This document shows, in pieces, positions 15,729-60,763 of a stretch of DNA of 64,000 bases. The position numbers were made by a program, and so were the translations under genes. Below the pieces are notes generated by a model, which was not told the origin of the DNA, did not search any database, and saw only the letters and a program-made list of their open reading frames with translations. Location: the NCBI GenBank assembly GCA_046482545.1, contig JAWOEX010000022.1, positions 1 through 64,000 of the forward strand, written 5' to 3'. Position 1 is the stretch's first letter, and the number at the start of each line of letters is the position of its first letter. The DNA is from Candidatus Thorarchaeota archaeon. Its GTDB lineage: Archaea > Asgardarchaeota > Thorarchaeia > Thorarchaeales > Thorarchaeaceae.

Positions 15729-15792
15729 ATAACCTGTTTGAAACTTCTGCATTCCCCCTTCCCTGCCAATGTCACCGCCCCAAGATACTCCT
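15729..15792 (-). mobile_element. Degenerate 3' remnant of dispersed element (copy B)
   Basis: Reverse complement reads GGGGCGGTGACATTGGCAGGGAAGGGGGAATGCAGAAGTTTC-AAACAGGTTAT, matching copy D's 3' end with the terminal hairpin deleted. Confidence 0.8.
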
Positions 15793-15991
15793 GGGAGAAC
15801 AATTGAGTTCATGGAAAAACAGAGGGAACCATTCGAAAGGAGCAAGTAAACCAGCGACCCGGTCCATGCAGGCCAATCTGTTCTCATATGGTAGTTAGCA
15901 TGAAATCTTACAGAAATTTTACACTTCTGTATACAGATTCATTTAGAATTCTGTAAGCTTTATACTTTTTTTGAGTTACGCTTTCAAGGTC

Positions 15992-17359: not shown

Positions 17360-17752
17360 TTGCACGAATTTTCCGCCGCTTGTTCCATTGTTGATACTGC
17401 CCTAGAAGCAGTTAAAAGTCATGATGTGAACAAAGTTTTGGCCGTAAATATTGAAGTTGGGGAATTCACCTTCCTAGTACCTGAACAGCTTGATTTCAAT
17501 TTCAAAATTGCCGCTGAAGGAACCATCCTCGAAGGAGCTGAACTCAAAATCGAGAAGGTGAAGGGAACCATACGTTGTGCCGAATGTGGCTTTGAAGGAG
17601 AAGCACAGAGTCCAGACGATGTTCCAACACAAATAGCGGCTTTTGCTCCTATGAAGTGCCCTGAGTGCAATAGTAGCAATACTACAATAACCGGCGGTCG
17701 GGGATTCGTAATAACAAATATTGAGGCCGAGGTTGATACGAACGAACCTTGA
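17360..17752 (+). CDS. hypA: Hydrogenase nickel metallochaperone HypA
   Basis: N-terminal MHEFS, two CxxC, GG near C-terminus. Confidence 0.93.
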   Translation: MHEFSAACSIVDTALEAVKSHDVNKVLAVNIEVGEFTFLVPEQLDFNFKIAAEGTILEGAELKIEKVKGTIRCAECGFEGEAQSPDDVPTQIAAFAPMKCPECNSSNTTITGGRGFVITNIEAEVDTNEP

Positions 17753-17873: not shown

Positions 17874-18295
17874 TGACTGGGCAAATGGGCTAGTACTCTG
17901 ATACGACACACACGGCCGAAAGCCTAAGGGAAGACCAGTCTTCTAAGCAGAAGCACTCACTCTCCAAACAAGGGACTCCATCGAGTTCAGGAGAGTCCAC
18001 GGCTGTTCACCATGTCTAGACGTATCTTCTCAGCTACGGTGATAAGGCTGAGGTGAGTGATCATGACCACGCCGTGGTAAGGACTGTGGAAGAGTTCGCT
18101 GTCGCCGGGAGTGATGACCCGGGAACACGACAGGAGACAGAAGTTAGGACCGCAGGATGGATATTTCCCAAATGATCGTCGAAAAAGTCTCTGCTTGGCC
18201 GGGGGTAGCGTCTCGGTATAGTGGTGACACTGGGCAACGGAAGCGTGGAACAAACAAGTTTCACGCAGTTGCTACAACTGTAAGAAACAGGTTAA
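17874..18295 (+). mobile_element. Dispersed structured element, copy C (divergent)
   Basis: Colinear with copies D/E (CTCAGCTACGGTGA.AAGGCTGAGGTG, CCGGGAGTGATGACCCGG, CTGTAAGAAACAGGTTA); intergenic between convergent hypA and rps8e. Confidence 0.9.
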
Positions 18296-18322
18296 TAGTA
18301 TGATACTGCTTGCGGAAAAAGA

Positions 18323-25281: not shown

Positions 25282-25619
25282 TTTCTTTTCCTCCTTGATT
25301 CTAAGCATTCTTGATATTGAGGATGTTAGATGATATATATCTTCTACGATAGACAACGTATATGAGGCTAACGTGTACAATTAGCACGCTCGAAAGCAAA
25401 ATATAAACGTCTCACTTGAGCTTCTCCCATTGAGCATGTGACGATTGACTTGATAATCTCTTGACAGATGAAAGATAAACTCCATCGAGGTCAGCGCAAT
25501 TATGCCTCTTCTTAAATCCACATCCAGTTCTTTCCCCGCGTCGAAAAAAGTCTTGGACAATATACCTTATACCATGCGCGTCAAATGTAGCAGTCTTGCT
25601 CGTGATGTCAGAGAAATCG

Positions 25620-26079
25620 ATTAGACAGACTACAGTACCGGATATCAGTAGGGCTAGGGCGGTGAGCCGCTCCTCAAAGGGAGAAGAGATCAGTCCCGAA
25701 GGCTGTAAGGAAGATCCAGTCTTCTAAACAGAAGTCCTTACTCTCCACTAAAGGAACTGCATCAGGTTTCGGAGAGTCTGCGGCTGTTCACCTTGTCTGA
25801 AATGGATCTTCTCAGCTACGGTGACAAGGCTGAGGTGGGTAATCATGATCACGCCGTAGTACGGATTGTGGAAGACCCCGCTGTTGCCGGAGTGATGACC
25901 CGGGAACATGACAGGAGACGGAAGCCAGGCCCGTTGGAGGAATCCAATTCCGGTGAACGTGGACGAAGCCCCTGCTAACCCGAGGGCCTACGGGTAGCCT
26001 TGGGAGCGGCGATGGTGGCAGGGGAAGAGTGGAACACGGAAGTTTCATGCAGTGTACTCAACTGTAAGAAACAGGTTAT
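25620..26079 (+). mobile_element. Dispersed structured element, copy D (full length)
   Basis: Aligns end to end with copy E from ATTAGACAGACTACAGTACCG to CTGTAAGAAA..GGTTAT. Confidence 0.93.
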
Positions 26080-26196
26080 TAAGATAGAATTCCGCAGAAA
26101 AGATTTTTCGCTATAGTCAGGTTTATAATAATTCTAGAACTGGCTCAATTCGTCCAGAAGGACTGTACATACCAATTGGTGAATAAGTTGTCGTCT

Positions 26197-58954: not shown

Positions 58955-59093
58955 CTTCTGGAATCCCCACTGATGGCAATCATGCTCTTGGCATCTAGTA
59001 GGCCACTTTTGGGTATTTTAGACTTGTGGCAATGTGTTATCTGAAATATGCCCTAATTGCGCAAAAGATACCATAATGTAATGCACTATCTGT

Positions 59094-59551
59094 ATAACCC
59101 ATTTCTTACAGCTGAGTAAACTGCGTGAAACTTCTGTGTTCCACCCTTCCCCTGCCAGCGTCGCCGCTCCTACGGTACCCGTAGGCCCGTGAGTCAGCAG
59201 GGGCTTTGTCCGCGTTCACTGGAATGGGATTCCTCCCGCGGTCCTGGCTTCCTTCTCCTGTCGTCATCCCGGGTCATCACTCCCGGCAACAGCGAGGTCT
59301 TCCACAGTCTTTGCCACGGCGTGGTCATGATCACCCACCTCAGCCTTGTCACCGTAGCTGAGAAGGACCATCTAGACATGGTGAACAGCCGCGGACTCTC
59401 CGGAACCTGATGAAGTTCCTTCAATGGAGAGTGGGGACTTCTGTTTAGTGGAACGGATACACCTCACAGCTTTCGGGGCTGAGCGCTTCTCCCGTTGGGA
59501 GTGGCTCACCGCCCTAATCCTACTGATATTCGGTACTGTAGTCTGTCTAAT
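59094..59551 (-). mobile_element. Dispersed structured element, copy E (full length)
   Basis: Reverse complement aligns end to end with copy D (25620-26079). Confidence 0.93.
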
Positions 59552-59728
59552 GAATTTTTCTTTGGTCACAAAAAGGGCTCGATGAAATCTTACACTTTAC
59601 TGTGCTGATTTACTTAGGACTTTGTAAGATTTACAAAGCTCTTGAACTCCTGAGTTGTTTTTGTTCCTTTCCACCAATCATTTATGCGAGGATTGTTGCA
59701 TACCGGTAGTACAACCGGGGACACGAAC

Positions 59729-60763
59729 ATGGGTACAAAACTCGGATCGATTGTCCAGGCGGAGACACTCTCACTATCGGATTTATCTGGTCGTGAGATT
59801 GCAATAGACGCCTTCAATTCAATATATTCTTTCTTGGCGATAATCCGTCAGCCGGACGGCACTCCTCTCAAAGATCAAAAGGGGAGAGTAACAAGCCATT
59901 TGAGCGGCCTTTTCTACAGGAATATCAACCTACTTGAAAAGGGCATCTACCCTATTTATGTATTTGATGGAGAACCACCTGAGCTCAAGTCTGAAGAAAT
60001 AGAACGCAGAAAAAAGGTCAGAAAAGAAGCTCGGAAAGAATGGAAAAAAGCCAAGGAAGAAGGGCGGATAGAGGATGCTAGAAAGGCCGCCCAAGCAAGC
60101 TCTAAACTCACGGAAGAGATGGTCATCGATAGCGAGGCACTACTGTCTGCCCTAGGCATCCCTCATATACAAGCCCTCTCGGAAGGCGAAGCACTGGCCG
60201 CTCAGCTCGCAAGAGAAGATATGGTCTGGGCAAGTGCAAGCCAAGATAACGATTCCCTTCTCTATGGTTGTCCGCGCATGATACGCAATCTGACCATTTC
60301 AGGTCGCCGAAGATCTTCCTCTTCTACTGGTTATATCACTATCGAGCCTGAACTCATTGATCTTGACCTTAACCTCCGATTACTTGAAATATCCCGTGAG
60401 CAGCTAATAGATATAGCAATCCTAGTTGGTACTGACTACAATGATTCGCCTCCAGGTATTGGCCCCAAGACTGCCTTGAAGCTGGTCAAAGAACACGAAA
60501 ACCTTGAAGGGATAGAATCAGCAACTGATTTTGATTTTGATTTTCCATATGAAAGGATTCGTGGCATATTCTTGAACCCTCCTGTAGTAGAAGTAGAATC
60601 CCCAGAGTGGGTCGACCCAGACTTCGATGGCGTCCGACGGATTCTGTGTGATGCACATGATTTCAGCGAAAAAAGGGTTGATAGTTCCCTTGAGCGGCTC
60701 AAGGCTTCATTAGAAAAAATACGAGATACCACCCGACAAAGTGCTTTAGAAGATTTCTTCTAA
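59729..60763 (+). CDS. fen: Flap endonuclease 1
   Basis: MG start, AIDAFN, IRQPDG.PL, TSHLSGLFYR, VFDG, EGEA, SQD.D, GTDYN, GIGPKTA, PIP box QSALEDFF. Confidence 0.97.
   Translation: MGTKLGSIVQAETLSLSDLSGREIAIDAFNSIYSFLAIIRQPDGTPLKDQKGRVTSHLSGLFYRNINLLEKGIYPIYVFDGEPPELKSEEIERRKKVRKEARKEWKKAKEEGRIEDARKAAQASSKLTEEMVIDSEALLSALGIPHIQALSEGEALAAQLAREDMVWASASQDNDSLLYGCPRMIRNLTISGRRRSSSSTGYITIEPELIDLDLNLRLLEISREQLIDIAILVGTDYNDSPPGIGPKTALKLVKEHENLEGIESATDFDFDFPYERIRGIFLNPPVVEVESPEWVDPDFDGVRRILCDAHDFSEKRVDSSLERLKASLEKIRDTTRQSALEDFF

Follow-up and report, generated by a model that had tools for sequence, protein, structure and literature searches.

A study by Karvelis from 2021 reportedly dealt with the reRNA of the TnpB protein of ISDra2. 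The omega RNA of ISDra2 overlaps the 3′ end of tnpB, where the overlapped C-terminal residues are dispensable or disordered, and it contains a guide-proximal pseudoknot (PMC10097598). Of this RNA 116 nt are functional, while 231 nt are expressed (Nakagawa 2023, PMC10097598). Non-autonomous derivatives of IS200/IS605 elements have been described in Geobacillus; these PATE-like elements have no protein gene but still encode omega RNAs, for which TnpB has to be supplied in trans (Meers et al. 2023, PMC10055086). In Asgard-linked TnpB groups, the hypervariable segment that precedes the conserved GTTCACTCA has been proposed as a possible guide (Altae-Tran et al., PMC10691335). There are also TnpB clades with a rearranged RuvC-II motif, in which a glycine replaces the glutamate and another glutamate has been proposed as its substitute (PMC10691335).

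Here, we have analyzed a stretch of 64,000 nucleotides (the window) from the genome of a Candidatus Thorarchaeota archaeon. The window carries three homologous copies of a repeat without open reading frames, termed C, D and E, each about 550 nt long (Table 1). The host assembly comprises 3.05 Mb in 45 contigs and is 98.9% complete. A profile of the repeat gave 86 hits in this genome, 52 of them near full length, and about 75 of the 86 reach a common, sharp 3′ boundary that reads ...CUGUAAGAAAYRGGUUAU. A few discrete classes of 5′ ends can be distinguished, and in all of them the 5′ end adjoins a common left end (LE; about 60-170 nt). This left end was found at about 30 genomic places, among them an 8.2-kb element that bears tnpB (C20:236755). 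Copies C, D and E are tnpB deletion derivatives, in which the left end, the putative omega-RNA module and the right end (RE) have been kept. As judged from sequence, we consider it likely, with a probability of roughly 0.85, that the repeat is the omega RNA (the guide RNA scaffold) plus the right-end module of a family of Thorarchaeota mobile elements that encode TnpB.

Copy E had been delimited to 59094-59551 in a preceding sequence-only reading. The 3′ end at 59094 proved to be exact, while the 5′ end at 59551 was set too short: the left end starts at 59639, and the element thus reaches about 90 nt further 5′, up to an LE with a hairpin and a TATA-like box. Sequence similarity to other copies extends as far as 59646. 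The TATA-like TAAGTAAA in this left end is a candidate promoter. On the strand of copy E there is no open reading frame of more than 76 aa, and the nearest tnpB of the family lies 63 kb away, outside the window. Positions 1-386 of the nhmmer model align to 59476-59094, and the start of the E module is equivalent to TnpB codon ~459. Directly beside the left end lies a gene for the flap endonuclease FEN1 (59729-60763, plus strand). Its likely start is the ATG at 59729 (MGTKLGSIVQ...) and not the upstream ATG at 59684, and copy E therefore sits in the FEN1 promoter region and is divergently transcribed.

The ~33 kb that copies D (plus strand) and E (minus strand) enclose are inverted with respect to two genomes of the same genus. 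In those two genomes FEN1 abuts the right flank of D at a distance of about 50 nt, an element is absent from this junction, and the left flank of E is found about 1.8 kb from the left flank of D. The inversion is consistent with recombination between the two inverted copies. Another rearrangement was seen elsewhere in the host genome (G000), at C41:25068-25601, where the LE and the first ~220 nt of a copy are inverted and abut the 3′ 310 nt of a copy. A nested insertion was considered at this place and rejected; it is the palindromic junction of a rearranged copy.

Table 1. Features of the repeat copies in the window. Positions on the minus strand may run in the direction of the RNA; bases are given as RNA where a helix or loop is meant.
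Feature	Position	Strand	Basis
3′-terminal fragment of another copy, cut by the contig start	1-67	+	
Short piece from within the module, model positions 292-359	15731-15795	-	
Copy C, left core CTTGA	17748-17752	+	
Copy C, more diverged non-autonomous element; RE ends in GGTTAA	17753-18295	+	homology
Copy C, module	17917-18294	+	profile match
Copy C, right core TAGTA	18296-18300	+	
Copy D, non-autonomous element with degenerate left end	25546-26079	+	
Copy D, putative omega-RNA module, model positions 1-386	25696-26079	+	
Copy D, junction core TAAGA	26080-26084	+	
Copy E, non-autonomous element, no TnpB (LE, putative omega-RNA module, RE)	59094-59639	-	BLAST against own genome, LE alignment
Copy E, left junction core CAAGA (TAM-like), preceded by TT	59640-59644	-	
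Copy E, left end	59584-59639	-	LE alignment
Copy E, LE hairpin arm AAAUCUUACA	59632-59623	-	
Copy E, TATA-like TAAGTAAA, between the LE hairpin arms	59616-59609	-	
Copy E, LE hairpin arm UGUAAGAUUU	59594-59585	-	
Copy E, putative omega-RNA module	59094-59524	-	consensus fold, covariation
Copy E, 5′ extension, present in the long class of copies only	59470-59524	-	
Copy E, structured core	59098-59469	-	consensus fold
Copy E, helix 1, CCGCGGC/GCCGUGG	59394-59388 / 59320-59314	-	
Copy E, helix 2, GGUGUA/UCCACU	59463-59458 / 59452-59447	-	
Copy E, helix 3, ACUCUCC/GGAGAGU, enclosing GGAACU/GGUUCC		-	
Copy E, loop UCAUCA of hairpin 3; CAUCA (59412-59408) is one kissing-loop strand	59413-59408	-	
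Copy E, helix 4, CUCAGC/GCUGAG		-	
Copy E, helix 5, CUGUUG-CCGGG-AGUGAUGA-CCCGG-CGACAG		-	
Copy E, loop AGUGAUGA of hairpin 5; UGAUG (59279-59275) is the other kissing-loop strand	59281-59274	-	
Copy E, helix 6, CCCCUGCU/GGCAGGGG, enclosing the c[UACG]g hairpin		-	
Copy E, helix 7, terminal (right-end) hairpin GUUUC-GCAGUU...AGCUGU-GAAAU	59131-59101	-	
Copy E, GGG 4 nt before the 3′ end, putatively paired with CCC (59436-59434)	59098-59100	-	
Copy E, predicted guide, 3′ of GGUUAU	59069-59093	-	analogy with TnpB systems
Copy E, right junction core ACAGA, CNNGA-type, first 5 nt of the predicted guide	59093-59089	-	

The proposal that copies C, D and E conserve an RNA fold is upheld by strong covariation in two sets of 49 and 81 copies. 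Folding of a gap-filtered alignment of 49 copies with RNAalifold led to a consensus of 113 nested pairs with compensatory changes above those in shuffled alignments, and all seven helices named beforehand are recovered in it; the unfiltered alignment gave a poorer structure (56 pairs). As controls, the pairing partners were slid by 1-3 columns, and the columns of the 49-copy set were shuffled 300 times. Canonical pairs make up 91.4% of the consensus, compared to 35-43% with slid partners. Double-sided changes were found in 53 pairs and 249 cells, while shuffled alignments gave 32±3 pairs and 94±9 cells, and none of the 300 shuffles reached the observed value. The second set of 81 sequences, from at least 12 genomes, includes copies from other genera and TnpB-linked loci. 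Here, 89.5% of the pairs are canonical (36-43% when slid) and 88 of the 113 show double-sided changes (61±3 in shuffles). The compensatory cells number 757, compared to 256±16 after shuffling (at most 292) and 197-265 with slid partners. The divergent TnpB-linked loci have 69-91% of the pairs in canonical form and keep 11-27 pairs per sequence through double changes. Even loci with 48-62% nucleotide identity to the consensus keep 69-85% of the pairs, 18-27 of which are rescued by double changes in each case. Sequence changes are numerous in both the hairpin inside helix 3 and the terminal hairpin, with the pairing kept. The UNCG loop that had been noticed is present in copy E as a c[UACG]g hairpin, and other copies have UUCG or UGCG in its place.

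Several G-U pairs of the fold are near-invariant, for example those of columns 129:206 and 326:368. Because many of the conserved G-U pairs are strand-specific, the fold can be assigned to the strand that ends in GGUUAU. Selection on an RNA of ~450 nt from this very strand had been suggested from the sequence, and for roughly 430-450 nt it is borne out by the covariation, the G-U pairs and an equal conservation of codon positions in the overlapping gene, as described below.

This gene is tnpB. A search of the host genome with PF07282, the TnpB zinc ribbon, pointed to seven places, and five of these lie immediately upstream of, or overlap, copies of the repeat. The TnpB-like open reading frames are 544-560 aa long and have their last ~100 codons inside the repeat, so that the tail '...GESAAVHHVQ...' is encoded within the module, and the repeat extends 82-178 nt beyond the tnpB stop, up to the shared 3′ end. 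The position of the module at the tnpB 3′ end is fixed across genera: we found it in this place (nhmmer, 12 loci) in all TnpB homologues with 44% identity or more that were fetched from other Thorarchaeota genomes. The proteins match models of guided_TnpB, Cas12f2 and IS605 OrfB, and their sequence matches in the PDB are TnpB and Cas12f structures; the TnpB score of 72 bits is below the NCBIfam cut-off of 100 bits. Annotated homologues with 54-91% identity occur in Thorarchaeota, 'Lokiarchaeota' and Promethearchaeia. The putative partner protein of the RNA thus has the RuvC fold with zinc ribbon of TnpB. Aspartates D242 of RuvC-I and D437 of RuvC-III (NADRN) are invariant, as is the C4 finger. 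The glutamate of RuvC-II is absent and a glycine is found instead (LYIGIGRLKGI). Since this canonical residue is missing, the predicted nuclease activity would rest on a substitute, for which the invariant E403 (PExWTS) is the candidate.

Constraint on the 3′ part of tnpB differs from that on the rest of the gene. Among 14 tnpB genes, the identity at codon positions 1, 2 and 3 amounts to 0.60/0.73/0.36 in the N-terminal part and 0.62/0.72/0.36 in the RuvC core. In the tail (residues 462-550) the values are 0.60/0.61/0.57, and relaxation of the third position is not seen. Two genomic copies have an in-frame TGA in the tail, and their nucleotides are still conserved. Because the three codon positions are equally conserved, selection in the TnpB tail acts on the RNA and not on the protein. 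Position and strand of the module, which runs from the tnpB 3′ end to the right end of the element, match those of a TnpB omega RNA (reRNA), and for this reason the omega RNA appears to be the best reading of the ~430-nt module; binding of the RNA to the protein and cleavage are predictions from it. Rfam gave nothing relevant, neither for the whole window at gathering score nor for the element at E up to 10, and a tRNA/tmRNA scan found none. Against the omega RNA count the missing Rfam family, the low TnpB score, the absent RuvC-II glutamate and the size of the scaffold, which has about three times the length of TnpB omega RNAs characterised so far.

From these data a working model can be drawn. 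In full elements transcription would start in the left end and read through tnpB. The last ~100 tnpB codons together with ~85-180 nt beyond the stop would fold into a scaffold of ~380-430 nt, made of about 20 helices, the kissing loop UGAUG/CAUCA and a short long-range helix near the 3′ end. The RNA would then run on into the DNA that flanks the right end, and this flank would act as the guide. TnpB would bind the RNA and cut DNA that matches the guide beside a target-adjacent motif, and cutting might restore or keep the element at its own site, as in IS200/IS605 systems. The RNAs of copies C, D and E may be loaded in trans by the four to five intact TnpB proteins whose genes lie at other places of the genome.

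By analogy with TnpB systems, the RNA most likely does not stop at GGUUAU but extends into a copy-specific guide. Conservation ends after GGUUAU and a 5-nt CNNGA core. In 52 of 57 copies the next 20 nt occur nowhere else in the genome, and the matches of the other five are at chance level; a search for second genomic targets of the 57 putative guides gave only chance-level matches of 17-18 nt. Such unique flanks fit a guide that is taken from the flank and directed at the element's own site. A candidate guide-proximal helix, CCU/AGG (columns 85-87/429-431), lies four nucleotides from the 3′ end; it is 85-90% canonical and, with 3 bp, very short; its pair 87:429 varies between UA, UG and CG with 8 double changes. 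In its position the helix recalls the guide-proximal pseudoknot of ISDra2 and Cas12 guides. The stem of the terminal hairpin varies between genera with compensation, and in other subfamilies its loop carries GUUCACUCA, a motif noted in PMC10691335. The hypervariable stretch that has been discussed as a guide corresponds here to the 5′ arm of the terminal hairpin and is compensated by the 3′ arm, with GTTCACTCA as the loop. Because the stretch pairs with the other arm of the hairpin, we prefer the 3′ flank: it is probably the guide, and the internal hypervariable segment would be an improbable one.

Metatranscriptomes had been suggested as a place to look for a discrete transcript. The element is indeed present in contigs of three salt-lake runs from two studies, contigs from which neither strand nor ends can be read. 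A discrete transcript did not emerge from them: the depth exceeds that of the flanks about 30-190-fold in the RNA runs and, alike, about 70-fold in a DNA run, a similarity that is due to the multi-copy nature of the element. RNA contigs are sparse over 59355-59516 while the DNA run covers this stretch, and such missing cover is no evidence of absence.

The junctions of the copies bear on the question of how the elements move. Left junctions read (A/T)T-CNNGA-7 nt-AAAUCUUACA and right junctions GGUUAU-CNNGA. The CNNGA core is thus found on both sides, the two variable nucleotides agree between left and right in about 10 of 14 copies, and the cores are specific for subfamilies (CAAGA, CTGGA, CCAGA and CAGGA). 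The site of copy C and the junction between FEN1 and the D flank are each empty in two sister genomes, and the two empty sites hold a single CNNGA core; two further loci offered no usable empty sites. A core at both junctions that occurs once in empty sites fits either an IS605-like arrangement, in which the TAM equals the TEM, or a 5-nt target duplication. The flanks are ~20% diverged and contain small indels, and they do not discriminate between the two. If TCNNGA were the TAM, the occupied site itself would look like a target, as the right junction resembles the left one.

The 8.2-kb element (C20:228522-236755, locus L132) shares its LE and RE with the short copies. It encodes TnpB (559 aa), a divergently oriented gene of 1410 aa and an open reading frame of 206 aa, and it is flanked by a direct repeat, the 12-mer TATCTGGATTGC. 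A TnpB divergently paired with a giant protein was also seen at C28:881-8802 (L103) of the same genome (G000) and at two loci of other Thorarchaeota (L100, L101). The giant proteins comprise 1410-1963 aa (1524-1963 aa in other Thorarchaeota) and share 25-27% identity over 950-1500 aa. They contain a PD-(D/E)xK-like motif (GKxDLVLF...E/DxK), and searches of Pfam, NCBIfam and PDB sequences gave no match. The giant protein is a candidate for a partner nuclease or a transposase. We found no Y1 TnpA, serine recombinase, Cas1 or reverse transcriptase linked to the copies. Searches of the whole genome for a reverse transcriptase (PF00078) and Cas1 (PF01867) also gave none, an absence that is unproven at 98.9% completeness. 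The sole Y1 transposase of the genome (IS200-type, PF01797) is encoded at C24:6161-6457 (L033:2135-2872). With 246 aa it is ~100 aa longer than usual, and it adjoins neither a TnpB nor a copy of the repeat.

These features invite the thought that the oversized RNA, TnpB and the PD-(D/E)xK-like protein of 1400-1960 aa together choose or process the integration site. Such RNA-assisted transposition is quite unlikely. If true, it would account for the subfamily-specific CNNGA at either junction as well as for the spread to about 50 protein-less full copies. We regard it as very unlikely, too, that the RNA works in transposition in a broader sense, similar to a bridge RNA or in RNA-guided integration, with TnpB and/or the giant protein, and not just as a homing guide. 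Besides the missing link to any of the four recombination enzymes searched for, the matching subfamily-specific cores, the 12-nt direct repeat around the 8.2-kb element and an RNA far bigger than a normal omega RNA speak for this role. However, no RNA column covaries with the junction core: the mutual information gave no signal and was at most 0.5 bit (n=30). Furthermore, IS200/IS605 elements with similar TAM and TEM give an equal junction pattern, and the genome does encode one Y1 TnpA.

IS200/IS605 elements move as ssDNA, and the pairings could hence matter in the DNA, as transposon-end hairpins for a Y1-type transposase, instead of in an RNA. Imperfect sub-terminal hairpins are indeed found at both LE and RE, and they share the motif TGTAAGA. 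However, about 20 helices, long-range pairs and a kissing loop over 380 nt go far beyond the needs of end recognition, many invariant G-U pairs would turn into A-C on the opposite strand, and the module sits exactly where an omega RNA is expected. We therefore hold a role in ssDNA to be highly improbable.

A different RNA was suggested by the loop of hairpin 5. Its GUGAUGA fits the RUGAUGA consensus of a C box, the host is an archaeon, and the sequence-only reading had accordingly named it a possible L7Ae site. This part of the reading had to be abandoned. The motif sits in an 8-nt hairpin loop, a CUGA (D-box) partner was not found and the k-turn geometry is absent. Instead, the nearly invariant loop AGUGAUGA is complementary to the UCAUCA loop of hairpin 3, which is nearly invariant as well. 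The five pairs of UGAUG/CAUCA are 93% canonical in register, compared to 5-60% when slid. Compensatory variants of both loops were found as GAUAC/GUAUC (G005 and two MAG loci), as UGGCAC/GUGUCA (G004) and as UGACGA/UCGUCA (G018), and GUGAUGA is replaced in loci L123 and L131. The three variants stem from other genera and independent lineages. Since the two loops covary in three independent lineages, GUGAUGA is a strand of a kissing loop (pseudoknot) and not an L7Ae site. It is then scarcely credible that the module is an independent large ncRNA or L7Ae-type RNP that TnpB elements merely carry: where the loop becomes UGGCAC or UGACGA in other genera the partner loop changes to match, and the module is always located either at the 3′ end of tnpB or in deletion derivatives bounded by the same LE and RE. 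The exotic reading as a new L7Ae RNP is thereby removed. The fixed 3′ end and variable 5′ ends could suggest a retroelement with 5′-truncated copies, for instance a group II intron that is degenerate and without ORF. This can practically be dismissed: RVT_1 was not found in the genome, Rfam showed no intron even at E up to 10, domain V is absent, and the 5′ classes are discrete deletion junctions joined to the common LE.

Taking the TnpB omega RNA as the preferred reading, the data provide a covariation-backed guide-RNA structure for an Asgard-archaeal TnpB lineage, including the kissing loop and a candidate guide-proximal helix, where until now the lineage was flagged only by the sequence motif GTTCACTCA. 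The scaffold would be about three times the size of characterised TnpB guides, with ~100 codons of tnpB constrained as RNA rather than as protein, and a genome of 3 Mb would be colonised by about 50 protein-less guide-RNA cassettes. For research on RNA-guided nucleases, this defines the RNA that would have to be co-expressed with TnpBs of the RuvC-II-rearranged type. For transposon biology, the family is set apart by a parent element with a giant, uncharacterised nuclease-like protein and no assigned transposase.

How does the Thorarchaeota module compare to the described systems? Like the omega RNA of ISDra2, it is encoded on the same strand as tnpB, overlaps the ORF at its 3′ end, ends at the right end of the element and is followed by a copy-specific flank. 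Both have a conserved covarying fold; the short helix that in ISDra2 links nucleotides just upstream of the 3′ end with a distal 5′ segment has a candidate counterpart in the CCU/AGG helix. In contrast to ISDra2, the Thorarchaeota scaffold comprises ~380-430 nt instead of 116 nt, has an extra kissing loop and overlaps tnpB by ~100 codons. The proteins differ likewise: the Thorarchaeota TnpB has 544-560 aa with the RuvC-II glutamate changed to glycine, a linked TnpA is missing and CNNGA is found on both junctions.

The short copies resemble PATEs, as they are protein-less, keep LE, RE and the putative guide-RNA gene, occur in tens of copies and presumably depend on TnpB and a transposase in trans. 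Unlike PATEs, they are archaeal (Thorarchaeota) and consist, over ~550 nt, mostly of RNA, and their parent carries a protein of 1410-1963 aa instead of TnpA.

With 'Cas1H-Asgard-1/2' (Altae-Tran et al. 2023, PMC10691335) the family shares an Asgard TnpB, repeat-flanked loci and GTTCACTCA downstream of tnpB beside a variable stretch. As in the RIIr clades, the catalytic site is rearranged, a likeness by features and not by clade placement. In contrast to those loci, no Cas1 homologue was found in the host genome (PF01867), and the variable stretch is the 5′ arm of a hairpin with GTTCACTCA as its loop. Finally, the long structured guide, the small RuvC nuclease and, putatively, the pseudoknot principle are shared with the Cas12f sgRNA and other type V guides (PMC10097598). 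Unlike in Cas12f, there is no CRISPR array, and the guide is predicted to come from the flank of the transposon.
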